Shown: in pieces, positions 5,202 through 44,369 of the stretch | How positions within the stretch are numbered: position 1 is the stretch's first letter | Layout of the letters: each line of letters starts with the position of its first letter | Assembly: GCA_946498375.1 (NCBI GenBank) | Contig: CAMMOI010000001.1 | Location: 8,433 to 72,432, forward strand | DNA: 64,000 nucleotides | DNA from: an uncultured Mycoplasmatota bacterium | Lineage (GTDB): Bacteria; Bacillota_I; Bacilli_A; RF39; UBA660 | Direction of reading: 5' to 3' | Program-made: the position numbers and the translations under genes | The notes under the pieces: model-generated | Databases searched by the model: none | What the model was told of the DNA's origin: nothing | The model's input: only the letters and a program-made list of their open reading frames with translations

Positions 5202-5455
5202 TATATTTCCCCTGTTTCATTGCTTAATATAGTAATAGCATTTAATTTTATAATATTAAAAAATGTTTCAGCATCCATATTCTGTAAATCTTTTTTTAAT
5301 TGATAGCTTTCAAAAAGTGATTCTAAGTTAAAATTCTCTAAATCTATATTTTCGTTATTCAAAGAGAGGATATTATTATTAATATGAATTGAATTAATAT
5401 TAGGATTAAATTTTTGAATTGCTTCTAAAACAATAGCATTTATTTTTCCTATCAT
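5201..5455 (-). CDS. hypothetical small protein
   Basis: 84 aa ORF, first gene of a two-gene minus-strand unit. No recognisable motifs. AT-rich, so could be spurious. Confidence 0.3.
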   Translation of the reverse strand: MIGKINAIVLEAIQKFNPNINSIHINNNILSLNNENIDLENFNLESLFESYQLKKDLQNMDAETFFNIIKLNAITILSNETGEI

Positions 5456-5683
5456 ATTATTATCTCCTATCTTAAATATATTTTATCAAAAAAAATAGTA
5501 TTTTTAAATAATAATATATTAAATTATCAATATTTAAAATTTAGTTAATTAGAAAATTATAAAATATGAAAATATTAATAATTATTAAAAAATATTGTTT
5601 AAATTTTAAAGAAATTACTGCTAAATAGCTATTTGCGCTTTTTATTAGAAATTGTTATAGTCTTTAAAGAAAGGAGGAGAAAA

Positions 5684-6031
5684 TTGAATCAGGTAGTTTT
5701 GGTTGGAAGACTTACCAAAAATCCGGAAGTTACAGATTTAACGGATAATAAAAAAAGAACAACAATTACCCTTGCTGTAAATAGGCCCTTTAAAAATAGT
5801 GACGGTATCTATGAAACGGATTTTATTAAATGTATTTTATGGAATGGAATAGCTGCAAATACTAGCGAATTTTGCCATAAAGGGGACATTGTCGGAATTA
5901 AAGGCAGATTAGAAACTAATATTTATGAAGATACTGATAAAAGAAAAATATATAATATAGATGTAGTAGCAGAAAGAGTATCTTTTCTAGCAACTAATAA
6001 AAAAAATAATGAAAAAGAGACAGAAATTTAA
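5684..6031 (+). CDS. ssb: single-stranded DNA-binding protein (short SsbB-like form)
   Basis: OB-fold signature LNQVVLVGRLTKNPEV...ITLAVNRPFKN...TDFIKCILWNGIAAN. TTG at 5684 six nt after AGGAGGAGA. Product of about 116 aa lacks an acidic DDIPF-type C-terminal tail. Confidence 0.7.
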   Translation: MNQVVLVGRLTKNPEVTDLTDNKKRTTITLAVNRPFKNSDGIYETDFIKCILWNGIAANTSEFCHKGDIVGIKGRLETNIYEDTDKRKIYNIDVVAERVSFLATNKKNNEKETEI

Positions 6032-6054
6032 TTTTGTCTCAAAAGCTAAATATA

Positions 6055-6246
6055 CTAATCTTCCTCATAAAATAAATCATCAGGTTTTAATTCAAAAATA
6101 GCTGCAATTTGTTTTGCCATACTATAATATAAACCTCTTTGTTTATTTTCAATTTGCCAATAAAAAGCAGTGCAGATTCCTAAACGCTCTGCCATCTGCG
6201 CGCAAGTATAGCCCTTGCTTATTCTTATTTCTTTTAACTTATTCAT
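6055..6246 (-). CDS. XRE-family HTH transcriptional regulator (short, Cro-like)
   Basis: ORF 6055..6312 trimmed to MNKLKEIRISKGYTCAQMAERLGI, a canonical XRE helix-turn-helix. Divergent from the next regulator. Confidence 0.6.
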   Translation of the reverse strand: MNKLKEIRISKGYTCAQMAERLGICTAFYWQIENKQRGLYYSMAKQIAAIFELKPDDLFYEED

Positions 6247-10061: not shown

Positions 10062-10913
10062 ATGATATTACCATTTAATGAGCAAGTTATTAATGATGGA
10101 ACAATTAATAAGGAATCATTTAAATATCCTAATTTTATTGGCTATTTAAATCCATTAGGAGACCCTATTGATTTTAAAGATAAATATGGATATATTGGTC
10201 ATGATTCAACTTTAAATATTCAAGAGTATTTTAGAATATTTTATAATTTGAAAATTAAAGATTATGCGGGAATAAGTCAGTTAGAAAAATATCGAATGAC
10301 AAAAAATTATTTGATTTCTGAGAAAAATAGAAATATTCAGCTTTTGAAGCAATTGTGCGCTAATTTAAAAGAAGAAATAAATAATTATAGTAAACTAGCT
10401 CCGGATATTGTCATAATTGATCGAATGGAATTGGATATTTATAAATTTTTGTTAAATTGTTATAGTGCCAATACTTTTTTTGATGGTGTAGGAAATATTG
10501 TAACTTGTATGTGCGAAAAAGAATTTTGGTACAAAGAATATAAAAATAAAAGATTATATGATATGGACCATAATGACTTTCAAACTGAATATAAAATTTA
10601 TAAAGATGATATTTTGGCTAATGCTTTTAAAGACGTTATGATTCAATATTTAGGTTATCATAGTATAGAAAGAATACCAAAAACTATTACTACGTCTTCT
10701 TTAGAAATATATGAGACATTTTATAATTATTTATTAAATGATTTTACTATTGTTCAACTGCCTAAGATGAATTATGATTTAAATAAAAGAAAATATATTA
10801 ACCAAAATTCTAATTGCTTTTTCTTATCTGATCATCAATTAAGATTAAAAGAAGAAATTCAAGCAATCAAAAAATATGTACCATTAGATCAAAGATCAAA
10901 ATATTATCGTTAG
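10062..10913 (+). CDS. hypothetical protein
   Basis: 283 aa, Tyr/Asn-rich, no recognisable motifs. GGAGATAA SD. Followed by a strong terminator. Confidence 0.4.
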   Translation: MILPFNEQVINDGTINKESFKYPNFIGYLNPLGDPIDFKDKYGYIGHDSTLNIQEYFRIFYNLKIKDYAGISQLEKYRMTKNYLISEKNRNIQLLKQLCANLKEEINNYSKLAPDIVIIDRMELDIYKFLLNCYSANTFFDGVGNIVTCMCEKEFWYKEYKNKRLYDMDHNDFQTEYKIYKDDILANAFKDVMIQYLGYHSIERIPKTITTSSLEIYETFYNYLLNDFTIVQLPKMNYDLNKRKYINQNSNCFFLSDHQLRLKEEIQAIKKYVPLDQRSKYYR

Positions 10914-29314: not shown

Positions 29315-29391
29315 GGGCGATTAGCTCAGTTGGTTAGAGCACCTGCCTTACAAGCAGGGGGTCGTAGGTTCGAGTCCTACATCGCCCACCA
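29315..29391 (+). tRNA. tRNA-Val (anticodon TAC)
   Basis: Cloverleaf with acceptor GGGCGAT/ATCGCCC, anticodon loop CTTACAA, T-loop GGTTCGAGTCC, encoded CCA. Confidence 0.9.
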
Positions 29392-29399
29392 TTTTTTTT

Positions 29400-29475
29400 G
29401 CCGACATAGCGTAACTGGCAGCGCAACTGACTTGTAATCAGTAGGTTGGGGGTTCGACTCCCTCTGTCGGCACCA
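29400..29475 (+). tRNA. tRNA-Thr (anticodon TGT)
   Basis: Acceptor GCCGACA/TGTCGGC, anticodon stem ACTGA/TCAGT with loop CTTGTAA, GGTTCGACTCC T-arm, encoded CCA. Confidence 0.85.
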
Positions 29476-29482
29476 TTCTTAT

Positions 29483-29566
29483 GGAGGGATAGCGAAGTGG
29501 TCAAACGCGGCAGACTGTAAATCTGTTCCTTCGGGTTCCATGGTTCAAATCCATGTCCCTCCACCA
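29483..29566 (+). tRNA. tRNA-Tyr (anticodon GTA)
   Basis: Acceptor GGAGGGA/TCCCTCC, anticodon loop CTGTAAA, long variable arm, GGTTCAAATCC T-arm, encoded CCA. Confidence 0.85.
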
Positions 29567-29573
29567 CTTAAAT

Positions 29574-29649
29574 TGCCTCGTAGCCAAGTGGTAAGGCATC
29601 AGACTTTGACTCTGACATTCCGATGGTTCGAATCCATCCGAGGCAGCCA
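29574..29649 (+). tRNA. tRNA-Gln (anticodon TTG)
   Basis: Acceptor TGCCTCG/CGAGGCA, anticodon loop CTTTGAC, GGTTCGAATCC T-arm, encoded CCA. Confidence 0.85.
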
Positions 29650-29657
29650 TATATTAT

Positions 29658-29733
29658 GTCCTGTTAGCTCAGTAGGTAGAGCATCTGACTTTTAATCAGA
29701 GGGTCTGGGATTCGAGTTCCCAACAGGACACCA
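29658..29733 (+). tRNA. tRNA-Lys (anticodon TTT)
   Basis: Acceptor GTCCTGT/ACAGGAC, anticodon loop CTTTTAA, GATTCGAGTTC T-arm, encoded CCA. Confidence 0.85.
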
Positions 29734-29748
29734 TTTTATTTTGAAAGT

Positions 29749-29777
29749 AAAAGTTCTTGTAGGAACTTTTTTATTTT
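29749..29777 (+). terminator. intrinsic terminator after tRNA cluster
   Basis: AAAAGTTC-TTGTAG-GAACTTTT hairpin followed by TTATTTT. Confidence 0.65.
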
Positions 29778-29856
29778 AAAATTTAAAGTTATGTTTTGTA
29801 TTTACTTGTTTTTTTGAAAAAGATTGCTTATAATGGACAAGAAGGGAGATAATACA

Positions 29857-30414
29857 ATGTCTGAAAACGATAAAATTATGAAAAAATTACTTGTTTGTTC
29901 ATATATAATTATAGGATTAATTATTCTTAATACTATTATATTAATTTGTAAAGGTAATGTAACAAATTCTAATACTAATTCAACCACTACTACTAATGAT
30001 ACTACTAGTTATGATGTTAGTATGATGGAAAGCGTTGATTTGGATACAATGTTAAATGATGTATTTAAACGTGAAGATATTCAGGTTATATATATGGGAC
30101 GTCCTACATGTAGTCACTGCATCAGCTTCTTACCATCTTTACAACAAGCTCAAGAAGAGTTAGGATACACAACAGTTTATTTAGATATTGAAACAGTAGA
30201 TTCAAGTAGTGATGAATTTGATGAATTTATTGAAAAACTAGATATGGAATATACTATGGGTGAAGAAACTGGTACTTATGGTTCATTCTATGGATACACT
30301 CCAGCTGTATTCTTATATCAAAATGGTAAAATGATTGATGGTATAATTGGAGAATTATCATATGATGAATTGCTTGCTTGGTTAGAAGAAAATAATGTCG
30401 GTAATTCAAAATAA
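29857..30414 (+). CDS. membrane-anchored thioredoxin-like protein with CSHC active site (second paralog)
   Basis: ATG 29857 after AAGGGAG. N-terminal TM and Thr/Asn-rich linker, then IYMGRPTCSHCISFLPSL (CxxC). Same CSHC tetrad as the protein at 20286..20726. Confidence 0.55.
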   Translation: MSENDKIMKKLLVCSYIIIGLIILNTIILICKGNVTNSNTNSTTTTNDTTSYDVSMMESVDLDTMLNDVFKREDIQVIYMGRPTCSHCISFLPSLQQAQEELGYTTVYLDIETVDSSSDEFDEFIEKLDMEYTMGEETGTYGSFYGYTPAVFLYQNGKMIDGIIGELSYDELLAWLEENNVGNSK

Positions 30415-30524
30415 TTAATTATTTTCATTCACGTTATAGTCCTTTTTCCATAAAATAGAATATAAAAGGTTGATTTTTATAAAAAATGAATATATAATAA
30501 TATTGCATCAGAAATGATGCAATT

Positions 30525-30601
30525 GCGCCCATAGCTCAATTGGATAGAGCGTTTGACTACGGATCAAAAGGTTAGGGGTTCGACTCCCTTTGGGCGCACC
30601 A
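30525..30601 (+). tRNA. tRNA-Arg (anticodon ACG)
   Basis: Acceptor GCGCCCA/TGGGCGC, anticodon stem TTTGA/TCAAA with loop CTACGGA, GGTTCGACTCC T-arm, encoded CCA. Confidence 0.85.
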
Positions 30602-30608
30602 TTATTAC

Positions 30609-30685
30609 CGAGAAGTAGCACAGTTTGGTAGTGCACTTGGTTTGGGACCAAGGGGTCGCAGGTTCGAATCCTGTCTTCTCGACCA
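30609..30685 (+). tRNA. tRNA-Pro (anticodon TGG)
   Basis: Acceptor CGAGAAG/CTTCTCG, anticodon stem CTTGG/CCAAG with loop TTTGGGA, GGTTCGAATCC T-arm, encoded CCA. Confidence 0.85.
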
Positions 30686-40407: not shown

Positions 40408-40484
<77 letters not shown>

Positions 40485-40494
40485 GATTGATAGA

Positions 40495-40520
40495 AAACTC
40501 GAATTTTTATATTCGAGTTT
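40495..40520 (+). terminator. intrinsic terminator (10-bp stem) after tRNA-Arg(CCT)
   Basis: AAACTCGAAT-TTTTAT-ATTCGAGTTT followed by TATTATATTTT. The same 28-nt element follows tRNA-Arg(TCT) at 61406-61431. Confidence 0.65.
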
Positions 40521-40711
40521 TATTATATTTTAAAATATAATAATGTAGATGGTTCTAATTCTAATTATCAATTACTTGATTTAAGAGTAAGAACAGATGC
40601 TTTAGTTTTAACAATGACAAAAATAATTATTTATTTTAGAAAATAAAAGTACAGGTAAACCTCATCAAGGCACTAATAGGAAATTTTTTCAAATTATTTG
40701 AAATTTTATGA

Positions 40712-41533
40712 CTATTTTTTTGTATATTTATAATAAAGAATTTTTTGGCTTTCTTTTTTATCTATAAATAATTCTTCATAATTAAAATAGTTTTGAAATA
40801 ATATTTTTTCTTTATTTAAAAGTTCAGAATGTTGAGGTATTTGAGAACAAATAATTGAACCATTATTATTTAATAAATTCCATAAGTTTTCACAAATAAT
40901 AGTTAATTTTTTTGTATTGTTACGATTATAGTCTAAAATATTTGTTAAAAATATAATATCATATGTTTCTTTTATATCAATTAATTTATTTCCAATATCA
41001 ATGTTATTATATTTTATAATTAAATCATTTAAAATTTCTTTTAATTCAACTATTTTTATTTTATATGGAACATCAGGTTTTTCTATATATTCAAAAAGTA
41101 TATTACTATAAAAGTGTATATTATCTATTTTATTCAAAAAATATTGCCAAAATATTTGACTATCCTGCTCATCTTTAGATATAAATCTTGCATGATTAAC
41201 TATATATAGTAATTCACTTATTGATAAACCATCAGCATCTATATATTTCCAATTTAATATCCATTTGCGAAGATGAAAATATCTATAAGTAATTGGATTG
41301 ATATCAAAGCAATCAACTTTTTTGGCACCGTTTGTCAATGCAGAAAATAATATATCTGATGATGACATAACTGTATATACATCTTTATTTGTTAAATCAA
41401 TTTCTTTAAAAAGTTTTACTAAATTTTCATTTGTTCTTGAATAAATAAAACCAAATATATCACTACATTGTTTATTTAAAATAGAATCAACATATTTTAT
41501 ATCTTTTTCTAAATTATTCATATAATATTTCAC
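40712..41533 (-). CDS. Rossmann-fold methyltransferase-like protein with non-canonical glycine loop, hypothetical
   Basis: DVYTVMSSSDILFSALTNGAKKVDCFDINP aligns to class I MTase motif I-II (xxGxGxG replaced by MSSSD). YDIIFLTNILDY resembles the post-II/motif IV region. 273 aa. Confidence 0.35.
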   Translation of the reverse strand: MKYYMNNLEKDIKYVDSILNKQCSDIFGFIYSRTNENLVKLFKEIDLTNKDVYTVMSSSDILFSALTNGAKKVDCFDINPITYRYFHLRKWILNWKYIDADGLSISELLYIVNHARFISKDEQDSQIFWQYFLNKIDNIHFYSNILFEYIEKPDVPYKIKIVELKEILNDLIIKYNNIDIGNKLIDIKETYDIIFLTNILDYNRNNTKKLTIICENLWNLLNNNGSIICSQIPQHSELLNKEKILFQNYFNYEELFIDKKESQKILYYKYTKK

Positions 41534-41694
41534 CTCAAAAATTAAAGTTATTATATATTATTAAATTAGATTATACAAATGCTATTATAAAATTATACTA
41601 TATTTTTATTAAAAAATAGGAAAGTAGGTGTTAGGTTAGGAAATTAGAATTTAACAAAGAAATGTTTAGTTGAAGTGACTTATATATTGAAAAA

Positions 41695-41722
41695 AGGACT
41701 ATGATTTTTAATTCATAGTCCT
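41695..41722. terminator. strong hairpin, probably a bidirectional terminator
   Basis: AGGACTATGA-TTTTTAAT-TCATAGTCCT, a perfect 10-bp stem, between the minus-strand genes 41753..42841 and 40712..41533. Confidence 0.5.
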
Positions 41723-41752
41723 TATATAAAATACTTCCATGTTGGATAAATA

Positions 41753-42841
41753 CTATTTTTTCCTCTTCATTAAATAAGCTTGTGGAAGTTCGTTATCTCC
41801 CATTCTTAGTGATTTTTCCCATACACTTTGTGGAATTATTTTTTGATATTCTGGATTAAAAGCTATGGAATAACCCTCAGCATCTCCACGAATAATGCCT
41901 CTTACTAGATAGTTATCTTCAAAATCAAAAGTATATCTTTCCACTACGGCAAGATAACTAATTGCTCCTTCTTTATTTCCTTTTTTAATTTCACGCATAA
42001 TTTGATTGCCTAAACGTTTATGAATATATTTAAATGCCTGAGTACAATCAGAAGTTATAAAAGTTTTATAATCTTTTATTCTTAGCATTCTTTGGATATC
42101 TATATCATCCCAATTAATATTAATCATTTTTTTTGCATCAGTAGTAATAAGTTTTGTCCCAGCAAATAAATGATTTGGATGACAAATATGAATACAATGA
42201 TTATCCCATACTGATAACATGTCTTGCATTAATTTTTTTCCATCTTCAGTTAATATAGTTTTTTTATCACTTTCTAAACGAGTAAAATTTGTTAAAGATG
42301 TGTAATCTATAGTTATTTCATTATTATGGTCAGTACAAAGTTTATCAAATTTTAATTTTCCGAGATCTGTTAATCTAATTTCATTGTAAATAACTTCATC
42401 TTGTAATGTGGTTGTAATGTAGCCTTTTTTAGCTAATTTTTTTAATTCTTTTTGTTGTGTTTTACTGAAAATATTATCAATGGATTCTTCTTTAATACTA
42501 CCATAGTATTCAATTTTTCTTAACATAAATTCTTCAATATCAAAGTATTGAAAATATTTATTAACACAAGTTCCTGCAATTTGCTCTAATCTTTTTTCTA
42601 ATGTAGATTTGTTTTCAGAAATATAAGATTCAACAGTTATTCCATCTTTTAAAGAAATTTTCCCATCAGTTATTTTTATATAATTTTTTAAATAATCTAA
42701 TTTTAAACTATTAAGTTGATAATTTGGATTTCTTTTTAAAAAATCTTGCGTTAATAAAAAAATGTCTAAACTTGAAATATCATCAAATTGTAGCAATGCT
42801 CCTGCAACTAATTGTTCGGTATGCAAAATTGTTTTAGCCAT
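41753..42841 (-). CDS. hypothetical protein (362 aa)
   Basis: Long ORF with AGGAG-like SD. No recognisable family. Contains the HCIHICHPNH His/Cys cluster. Confidence 0.4.
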   Translation of the reverse strand: MAKTILHTEQLVAGALLQFDDISSLDIFLLTQDFLKRNPNYQLNSLKLDYLKNYIKITDGKISLKDGITVESYISENKSTLEKRLEQIAGTCVNKYFQYFDIEEFMLRKIEYYGSIKEESIDNIFSKTQQKELKKLAKKGYITTTLQDEVIYNEIRLTDLGKLKFDKLCTDHNNEITIDYTSLTNFTRLESDKKTILTEDGKKLMQDMLSVWDNHCIHICHPNHLFAGTKLITTDAKKMININWDDIDIQRMLRIKDYKTFITSDCTQAFKYIHKRLGNQIMREIKKGNKEGAISYLAVVERYTFDFEDNYLVRGIIRGDAEGYSIAFNPEYQKIIPQSVWEKSLRMGDNELPQAYLMKRKK

Positions 42842-42932
42842 ATATAAAAATCTCCTTCACTTAATTACTTATTATAGCATAAAAGCACTTAATTTTAGAT
42901 TAGGTGCTTTTTATATAACTTAATATAAAGTT

Positions 42933-43451
42933 TTATTTTCTATTAAACACATTTTTAATTAATTTTTTTATTCCTGTTTCTTGTCTACATTCAGTAGGGC
43001 AATCTATACCATTAGGTAGTTTTATTTTAAGACGACCTTGTTTCATCCATACAATATCTCTTATAGAAAGTATTTTAAAATCAAGTAATTCAACTTGTGA
43101 TATCATAAACATATTATTTTTTCTTTCATCTTCTGACATAGAATTAAATCTTTTTGCTAAATCATCACGCTTTTGACAAACACTTTGTCCCAAATCAATC
43201 AGTTCTTTTTCTGTTAAGTTTTTAATACTACTAAAGTCAACCATCCAATCTAAAGAGGAAAAAAATTCAATTTCTTCTGGTAAATTAAATTCAAGGAATT
43301 CATATCTATTAGTATCATCAATAATAGTTACATCTTTATTAAATGCTTTTGTAAATATCGAAGCGGGAATAAATAAATCATAACAATAGCTATTTAAGTA
43401 TGCCAAATCATTTTTTTGAACATACGCAGCATTTTGAGTAATTATTTTCAT
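42933..43451 (-). CDS. hypothetical protein (172 aa)
   Basis: ORF preceded by AAGGAGATTG. No recognisable family. First gene of a minus-strand unit divergent from 43623..44312. Confidence 0.4.
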   Translation of the reverse strand: MKIITQNAAYVQKNDLAYLNSYCYDLFIPASIFTKAFNKDVTIIDDTNRYEFLEFNLPEEIEFFSSLDWMVDFSSIKNLTEKELIDLGQSVCQKRDDLAKRFNSMSEDERKNNMFMISQVELLDFKILSIRDIVWMKQGRLKIKLPNGIDCPTECRQETGIKKLIKNVFNRK

Positions 43452-43622
43452 TATTACAATCTCCTTATGAATAGTTAAAACTAATCACCTTTTTTAAAAT
43501 TTAGGTATATAATATCACAATTGCTAAAAAAATACTATAAATATTGTACTTAGTTAAAAAATTGCTAAATTTATTTTAATATGCTAGTATATCTAATACT
43601 TAAACAAAAGGGGGGCATTAAT

Positions 43623-44312
43623 ATGGCAAATTTATTAGAAAAGAAAAAATGGGAATTACATGAAAAAAAATATAAATTATTACTGGAATATGGAGCTAAA
43701 AAGGGGTTAATAAAAGTTTATGATGAAAAATTAATTGCTGATTTAAGACAAGTTTACTATAAAGGGTTGCCAGTTTCTATTTTAATTTTACATAAATGGC
43801 TTAGTAATGGGCATTGTTTTGATAGGGCATTATTGATAAGTTTAGGATTTAATGATGATGATTTTCAAGTCATTACAGCTAATGTTGATAGCTTACGCCT
43901 AAATCCTTATTACATTGATGAATATCAAAAAAATAAAATCAGTAATGATTATGCAACTCATCGTTTTGCTCAAAGGATAAAAAAAGATGGAACAACTTGG
44001 ATTTATGATACATCAATAGGGTTAATATTTGACAAAGAATTATATTCTAAAATAGAAAATCCAAGAATAAAATATGTATTTGATAAACAAACAACACTAG
44101 AATGTTTAGATGATTTTCAAAAAGAATCAAACATAGAAGAAGATAAATATGCTTTACCATTAATATTACCTAATCTAGAGCGATATTTAGTACCAATACA
44201 ACCATTTTATTATGAGTTGCTTAAACAAGAAATTGCTTTATTTAAAAAAACTATACATTATGAAAAAATATGTAAAGAGATCAGTGAGGATTTTACGCGC
44301 AAAATGTTTTAA
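43623..44312 (+). CDS. transglutaminase-like / papain-like cysteine peptidase-fold protein, hypothetical
   Basis: ATG 43623 after AAAGGGGGG. Cys in SNGHCFDRALLISLGF, His in ATHRFAQRIKKDGTTW, and Asp in IYDTS are spaced and flanked like the transglutaminase-like core (G.C..A...; H.W.E...W..D.T). Confidence 0.4.
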   Translation: MANLLEKKKWELHEKKYKLLLEYGAKKGLIKVYDEKLIADLRQVYYKGLPVSILILHKWLSNGHCFDRALLISLGFNDDDFQVITANVDSLRLNPYYIDEYQKNKISNDYATHRFAQRIKKDGTTWIYDTSIGLIFDKELYSKIENPRIKYVFDKQTTLECLDDFQKESNIEEDKYALPLILPNLERYLVPIQPFYYELLKQEIALFKKTIHYEKICKEISEDFTRKMF

Positions 44313-44369
44313 TTTACTCAGTAAGATTAATTTTTATAAATAAAAAAATTCCTAATAAATTTTAGAAAT

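Follow-up and report, generated by a model that had tools for sequence, protein, structure and literature searches.

A variable flank of tRNA-Arg(CCT) in an uncultured gut Bacilli genome probably carries four independent, clade-restricted genes

We analyzed a 64-kilobase (kb) stretch of contig CAMMOI010000001.1 from an uncultured Mycoplasmatota bacterium, hereafter the window, and focused on the patch of DNA that lies directly 3' of its tRNA-Arg(CCT) gene and holds four genes, here called A, B, C and D. Our findings make it probable that this patch is a small variable islet at the tRNA flank, made up of four independent, separately transcribed genes restricted to the host clade, a group of uncultured, spore-forming gut Bacilli with roughly 25% guanine plus cytosine (GC). 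The islet spans a 3.8-kb stretch and is not one system. Its genes would have been gained piecemeal by recombination at the tRNA flank, and their four products would act independently of one another.

The initial annotation had described four genes behind tRNA-Arg(CCT) and its terminator, with dedA as the next gene, and this layout was recovered from the list of open reading frames (ORFs), ARAGORN, Rfam and the Pfam VTT_dom match. The features of the locus are as follows, with protein lengths in amino acids (aa):

40408-40484, + strand: tRNA-Arg(CCT), found by ARAGORN and by Rfam RF00005 (65.7 bits); left anchor of the variable site
40494-40521, + strand: palindromic hairpin bordered by A/T runs, the intrinsic terminator of the tRNA (terminator scan; -12.8 kcal/mol, z = -4.18 against shuffles)
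40712-41521, - strand: gene A, 269 aa, predicted class I S-adenosylmethionine (SAM)-dependent methyltransferase fold; the ORF at 40712-41533 encodes 273 aa from a GTG
41753-42841, - strand: gene B, 362 aa, two predicted N-terminal winged helices and a C-terminal domain without a fold match
42933-43451, - strand: gene C, 172 aa, conserved protein without functional assignment
43623-44312, + strand: gene D, 229 aa, predicted papain/transglutaminase-like Cys-His-Asp protein with NTAQ1 as its nearest match; the ORF at 43581-44312 encodes 243 aa
44370-44987, - strand: dedA/UptA-like membrane protein gene, Pfam VTT_dom E = 8e-25; right flank, outside the islet

The window has about 25% GC over its whole length. 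The ORF sizes given for the four genes hold, with 362 aa for B, 172 aa for C and a likely 229 aa for D, while the 273 aa of A are counted from the GTG. The likely start of A is the ATG at 41521, which has a GAGGTG ribosome-binding site upstream and agrees with the alignment of all homologues from residue 5; gene D likely starts at 43623, preceded by AAAGGGGGG. We regard A-D as real genes because all four families include conserved homologues in numbers from tens to hundreds (61 clusters for B, 33 for D, 131 for C and, at E <= 0.001, 682 representatives for A). The absence of a recognizable housekeeping function, also proposed earlier, was upheld, since none of the four reaches a threshold in Pfam or NCBIfam; the same is true of PADLOC and PHROGs, for single proteins and family alignments alike. 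Similarly, a protein-cluster look-up returned no annotation name for any of the four, and named sources label their homologues merely as hypothetical proteins of "Bacilli bacterium" metagenome-assembled genomes (MAGs). Identical copies of the four proteins occur in metagenome assemblies only, on contigs that share the gene order and carry genes for Firmicute markers such as SirA and LexA.

The 3' flank of tRNA-Arg(CCT) is a variable site in the host clade, and its content changes between species. We scanned GTDB species genomes with the neighboring SufBD-like protein, which yielded 80 loci (L-numbers are the labels of fetched loci). The closest relatives, 75-79% identical in SufBD, comprise chicken-gut MAGs of uncultured Bacilli as well as 'Candidatus Ventrenecus', whose name comes from a chicken-gut study (PMC8035907). 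In L014-L017, L020 and L021, tRNA-Arg(CCT) adjoins sufC in the same divergent arrangement as in the window, and a hairpin equivalent to the tRNA terminator of the window also lies 3' of tRNA-Arg(CCT) in relatives. The site is variable because, at this same sufC-tRNA anchor, L015 and L017 have an empty flank, and L014, L020 and L021 have other cargo there. In the two empty flanks, about 0.5 kb of non-coding DNA without any ORF of at least 40 aa leads to a sigma-factor gene. The flank of L014 carries genes for proteins of 298, 416 and 126 aa without assigned function, followed by the sigma factor, a 98-aa gene and LCP, and that of L020 encodes a 419-aa relative of the 416-aa protein together with a 458-aa protein. 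In L021 (4052-8909), the tRNA is followed by a gene for Fic with a winged helix-turn-helix (Fic-wHTH), a 93-aa ORF, an APH phosphotransferase and a LysR-HTH::ABC-F gene, and then by the sigma factor, the 98-aa gene and LCP. None of A, B, C and D is present in any of the 80 loci; in L040, for instance, an 83% identical dedA orthologue lies near the suf genes, and A-D are not there. The earlier view of this tRNA 3' flank as a variable or hotspot position is thus borne out by the comparison of relatives, whose flanks are either empty or occupied by other genes.

Two of these flanks deserve separate mention. The Fic-wHTH, APH and ABC-F set of L021 may be a small resistance islet. The 416-aa protein of L014 was considered as a diverged B on account of its similar length and was rejected (hhalign probability 0.2%). 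Over 68 C-terminal residues, this protein of the L014 and L020 flanks is similar to the product of another ORF of the window (10062-10913, + strand, at 10629-10832), with 32% identity and E = 4e-5, which suggests another clade-specific domain family.

The four gene families are also unlinked elsewhere. The contexts of diverged homologues were fetched and searched with A-D by tblastn, and in these loci no two of the families B, C and D had adjacent homologues, nor was any B homologue found with A, C or D. Homologues of B lie beside a type I restriction-modification (R-M) S subunit, a 1664-aa helicase/nuclease and a queuosine-salvage gene (L004), beside AAA_14/DUF4143 and DEAD-helicase genes (L007), next to a Mob_Pre relaxase (L094), near SymE, IS110, Mob_Pre, ThyX and a resolvase fragment (L097), and in co-directional arrays of genes without assigned function (L005/L006 and L158). 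A homologue of C follows rplM-rpsI (L012/L013), and those of D lie between thioredoxin/tRNA-Leu and Ppx-GppA (L008) or between PHP and ABC-transporter genes (L010). The closest homologue of A is on a 1.2-kb contig that offers no usable gene context.

Collections of defense and mobile genes were searched as well. Against PADLOC-DB v2, the proteins of the window reached only E ~0.01, to the winged-helix end of CARF3 models, and ten members of the A-D families gave nothing below E 0.017. No relatives of B, C or D were present in IMG/VR, and phage and plasmid records held no tblastn match for B, D or A. Since the genes have separate signals, since homologues of B, C and D stand alone elsewhere, and since PADLOC, PHROGs, phages and plasmids gave no matches, A-D are not a toxin/immunity, defense or coat module. 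The initial annotation had offered the first two as one possibility and a spore-coat gene set as the other; neither is supported, given the single B, C and D homologues in unrelated contexts and the empty PADLOC search in the one case, and the lack of a Tgl or Transglut_core match for D in the other.

The transcription signals point in the same direction, and the own promoters and strong palindromic terminator expected from the initial annotation were located, the former as promoter-like consensus sites. The signals are listed here:

41584-41612, - strand: promoter-like site of gene A, TTAATA-17-TATAAT (consensus scan, 10/12 matches; a consensus match only)
41694-41723, - strand: strong intrinsic terminator directly after gene B, 11-bp stem plus TTTTTT (-18.2 kcal/mol, z = -4.16)
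42851-42858, - strand: ribosome-binding site of gene B, GAAGGAGA, read from the sequence
42871-42879, - strand: putative extended -10 element upstream of gene B, TGCTATAAT, read from the sequence
42881-42912, - strand: weak hairpin with a T-rich tail after gene C, AAAGCAC/GTGCTTT stem (z = -1.3 for the spacer as a whole, not significant)

None of 200 shuffles was as stable as the terminator of B, and the promoter-like site of A sits between this terminator and the ribosome-binding site of A. In the direction from C to B, the small hairpin is followed by TGCTATAAT and then by the GAAGGAGA ribosome-binding site. Genes C and D are divergent, 171 nucleotides apart, and D has its own ribosome-binding site. 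Because of the terminator after B, the promoter-like sites before A and B, and the divergence of D from C, the four genes look monocistronic, with promoters that are consensus matches only.

Hallmarks of a recently integrated element were sought in the window as well. No recombinase or integrase was found among the ORFs of 38-47 kb in the ORF list and Pfam scans. The 24-nucleotide 3' end of tRNA-Arg has a single occurrence in the 64-kb window with up to 3 mismatches allowed, and a search for att-like repeats gave no meaningful flanking direct repeats, only AT-rich chance repeats. The lack of an integrase and of a repeated tRNA 3' end, as first noted, was therefore confirmed within the window. 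In composition, B, C and D deviate by no more than 0.6 standard deviations from the window mean for GC, for GC at third codon positions (GC3) and for synonymous codon choice, as calculated from 56 window ORFs. Gene A is very AT-rich (18.7% GC, z = -2.1 against the same ORFs) and uses the codons preferred by the host. With the composition of B-D native and A fitting the host codons, there is no compositional sign of foreign origin, and the profiling of GC and codon use proposed at the outset gave a native profile for A-D.

By contrast with the native A-D, the dedA/UptA-like gene to the right of the islet deviates in codon usage more than any other of the 56 window ORFs, with a GC3 of 0.224 (z = +3.3) and a synonymous-choice score of z = -3.2. 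Its product matches the NCBIfam UptA models below their cut-offs.

Examined as single families, the genes offer functional clues of different strength. The product of gene A, taken alone, gives weak matches to DUF3419, NodS, CheR and Methyltransf_31, all below gathering scores; that to Pfam DUF3419 reaches 19.5 bits against a cut-off of 28.2 and covers only positions 9-71 of the 385-position model. Among 42 members of the A family, 21 match Methyltransf_12 (best E 4.7e-6), 12 match DUF3419 and 12 match Methyltransf_31, and members also match Methyltransf_23. Searched against the PDB, the family profile gives weak matches to SAM-dependent methyltransferases, namely 8k76 (E 0.006), CheR and NodS. 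The conserved motifs of the family are VLSSSD, a serine-rich motif I; VDxFDIN, an acidic post-I motif; YDxIFLSNILDY, which is motif IV-like; and LLxxNGxVI. Profile and motifs agree with the original description of A as a Rossmann methyltransferase-like protein. By sequence, A is assigned a class I SAM-dependent methyltransferase fold but is no DUF3419 member by score. It most likely binds SAM and would methylate or otherwise alkylate a substrate.

The B family (61 homologues) typically has about 413 aa. Compared with all other full-length members, B of the window is without about 53 conserved residues, which are missing in frame at alignment columns 184-233. This deletion is real, because the identical 362-aa sequence occurs in three independent assemblies. 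In the AlphaFold2 (AF2) model of B, with a predicted local distance difference test (pLDDT) score of 85.7 and a predicted template modeling score (pTM) of 0.51, pLDDT falls below 50 at residues 173-179, the deletion junction. The loss of this segment between the two parts of the protein may have impaired B in this genome. Residues 1 to ~170 are modeled as two winged helices, for which Foldseek returned YusO, MarR, SarS, AspA and ScpB with probabilities of 0.9-1.0 and E values of only ~0.01-0.05, and Pfam gave weak matches to HTH_34 and DUF6293_C. For the C-terminal alpha/beta domain, neither the PDB nor BFVD offers a match; Foldseek finds only the winged helices in them, and the search of the PDB with the B profile was empty. 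Conserved C-terminal motifs are CHPNH, INWDDID, YLVRGIIRGD and GYSxAFNPEY, and conserved residues include C220-H221-P222-N223, W244, H274, E301, Y303, Y311, R314-G315, D320 and F328-N329-P330. The His/Cys cluster noticed at the beginning corresponds to the stretch HCIHICHPNH, which includes the conserved CHPNH motif. According to the model, B most likely binds DNA by its two winged helices and would act via the C-terminal domain bearing Cys, His, Glu and Asp (CHPNH...H274...E301...D320).

The history of the B family is marked by breakage. One homologue (P0038) is truncated at its 5' end and misses the first 103 residues, and the nucleotide synteny between L158 (8001-8957) and L005 (8001-9251) begins inside the B-family gene, at the breakpoint between conserved and variable DNA. 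RhuM (PF13310) was considered as a domain of the family and rejected, given that P0026 and P0061 are chimeric ORFs in which a RhuM fragment is fused to the C-terminal two-thirds of B. The truncated homologue, the synteny break within the gene, the RhuM chimeras and the deletion in the window together make B resemble cargo at recombination boundaries. As read from these sequences, the family is repeatedly broken at such boundaries, and its relatives lie at the edges of mobile or variable DNA.

Gene D is best described by its putative active site. An alignment of 23 sequences shows no variation at C65, D67 and H113, and at least 90% of the sequences have D129. The AF2 model (pLDDT 91.8, pTM 0.87) places C65 at the N-terminus of the helix formed by residues 64-75, and H113 and D129 on adjacent strands (112-119 and 125-129). 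With a cysteine at a helix start and histidine and aspartate on neighboring strands, the modeled arrangement would be that of papain and transglutaminases. The best Foldseek matches are human NTAQ1, the Josephin clippase PaJOS, a papain-like toxin, CtaG and a C39-like peptidase, all of them weak (E from 0.03, probability 0.89-0.94, template modeling score ~0.27 over ~105-120 residues). The profile of D matches nothing in the PDB, and no Pfam family is matched, including Transglut_core. The description of D as transglutaminase-like therefore stands in part: a papain/transglutaminase-like fold with a conserved Cys-His-Asp set is predicted, but there is no match to Tgl or Transglut_core. According to the model, D would be a cytosolic thiol enzyme in which Cys65 is the nucleophile and His113 and Asp129 complete the triad, and it most likely hydrolyzes or transfers an amide or peptide bond.

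Homologues of C are nearly all 160-180 aa long, with a mean column identity of 69% over 32 sequences. The protein matches nothing in family, PDB and defense libraries (Pfam, NCBIfam, PADLOC, PHROGs). C would be a small, cytosolic and strongly conserved protein without an assigned activity.

Several observations weigh against the interpretation of the patch as a variable islet of four independent genes. SufBD identity to the nearest genomes is no more than 75-79%, and the tRNA-Arg sequence of these genomes differs from that of the window; in addition, the right flank of the window (dedA, HAD, nifS) differs from that of the relatives (sigma factor, 98-aa gene, LCP). With relatives this distant and with a differing tRNA and right flank, the difference between flanks could partly reflect general loss of synteny and not a species hotspot. 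The number of contexts sampled is small, with ~7 for B, 2-3 for C, 2 for D and no more than a handful for A. A single case of co-occurrence was seen, on the metagenome contig L107, where 3 kb with four unrelated enzyme genes separate a homologue of C (1808-2287) from one of A (5239-6084). The structural matches of D and of the N-terminus of B are weak by E value (0.01-0.05), and C and the C-terminal domain of B have no family assignment. The L107 contig (1-10000) is itself a long co-directional array with SDR, HD, methyltransferase, His_Phos, DUF5662 and Metallophos genes, and grab-bag arrays of this kind seem typical of these genomes.

We also weighed readings in which the four genes belong together. 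The patch could be what is left of a single mobilizable element at the tRNA-Arg flank, with B and perhaps A, C and D as its cargo and with the integrase or relaxase and the att repeats since lost. Such an origin would account for the variable content of the flank among relatives, for the B homologues that adjoin Mob_Pre relaxase, IS110 and resolvase-fragment genes or sit exactly at breakpoints between conserved and variable DNA (L158 against L005), and for the repeated decay of B seen in the window deletion, the P0038 truncation and the RhuM::B chimeras. However, no integrase, relaxase, transposase or repeat of the tRNA end was found, composition and codon use are native, and plasmid, phage and IMG/VR collections contain no relatives. 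Moreover, homologues of C and D stand among housekeeping genes elsewhere, unlike the cargo of one element, and we consider this origin unlikely. The proposal that A-D serve in sporulation or in the spore coat, where D would play the part of the cross-linker Tgl, draws on the sporulation genes of the clade (SirA on the contig of the window; SpoVA, SASP and SpoIID near homologues), on the confinement of the families to the host clade and on the Cys-based acyl-transfer fold class that D would share with transglutaminases. It appears very improbable in view of the missing match of D to any Tgl or Transglut_core model in Pfam and NCBIfam, the absence of Tgl from the top 50 Foldseek matches, the lack of coat-gene neighbors in the loci seen and the lack of coat-typical features in A, B and C.

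Flanks of tRNA genes are hotspots for toxin/immunity and defense cargo, and this counts for a reading of A-D, or of the divergent pair C/D, as a toxin-immunity or anti-phage module with D as the effector. Among the weak structural neighbors of D are a papain-like toxin that belongs to a toxin/immunity pair (9l5u) and also a CdiA-CT/CdiI complex, and B homologues sometimes lie beside R-M or helicase genes. Against this stand the lack of conserved adjacency among B, C and D homologues, the empty PADLOC results for window proteins and family members, the absence in D of a secretion signal or toxin-delivery domain, the solitary position of D homologues between housekeeping genes and the separate transcription signals of each gene, so that we give such a module hardly any credence. 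A bolder proposal concerns two of the genes separately: B would represent an undescribed single-gene family of DNA-sensing effectors, and D a bacterial counterpart of the eukaryotic NTAQ1. We hold this to be a long shot. If true, B, which travels at mobile-element edges in gut Bacilli, would join two winged helices to a new Cys/His catalytic domain and could be a new stand-alone defense, exclusion or addiction protein. An NTAQ1-like D would suggest that Firmicutes have a protein-tagging step of the N-degron type.

For the variable islet of four independent genes, the reading we prefer, the practical outcome is negative, in that the locus should not be filed as a defense, toxin or coat candidate. 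The analysis documents that the tRNA-Arg(CCT) flank is hypervariable in an AT-rich, poorly known clade of gut Bacilli, and flags three orphan families: D, which is NTAQ1-like; B, which occurs at mobile-DNA boundaries; and C, a very well conserved protein of 172 aa. No single result is surprising enough to alter current thinking, and the interest of the locus is modest. Elsewhere in the window, and unrelated to the islet, a cluster of seven tRNA genes (29315-30685, + strand) comprises Val, Thr, Tyr, Gln and Lys, then Arg-ACG and Pro.

In comparison with known systems, the patch resembles tRNA-flank islets and integration hotspots in lying directly 3' of a tRNA gene, in differing in content between relatives and in carrying accessory genes without assigned function. 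It differs from them in that it lacks an integrase and a duplicate of the tRNA 3' end and is not atypical in composition, and its cargo consists of four unrelated, clade-native single genes, with no recognizable mobile element or defense system. Gene A shares a serine-rich motif I, an acidic post-I motif and a motif IV-like segment with DUF3419/BtaA-like and other class I methyltransferases, but at 269 aa is far shorter than the 385-position DUF3419 model, on which its match spans 62 residues. The two N-terminal winged helices of B resemble, by Foldseek, MarR/SarS-type winged-helix proteins, whereas no threshold of a helix-turn-helix family is reached and B adds ~200-250 conserved residues without a relative in the PDB or BFVD.

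For gene D, two comparisons are informative. Like the Tgl of Bacillus subtilis, D would be a small cytosolic protein with a Cys-dependent acyl-transfer fold in a spore-forming Firmicute, a resemblance only; it has no Tgl match in Pfam or NCBIfam, the top 50 Foldseek matches in the PDB do not include Tgl, and by these searches D is not a Tgl orthologue. Compared with NTAQ1 and the wider transglutaminase-/papain-like superfamily (BTLCP/LapG, Josephin, C39), D has extra N-terminal helices and a ~75-residue C-terminal helical bundle, and the structural match is weak. The triad of NTAQ1, Cys28-His81-Asp97, is common to transglutaminases and cysteine proteases (PMC4214742), and the predicted triad of D agrees with it in order, placement and near-equal spacing: the Cys-His and His-Asp distances are 48 and 16 residues in D and 53 and 16 in NTAQ1, its best Foldseek match.

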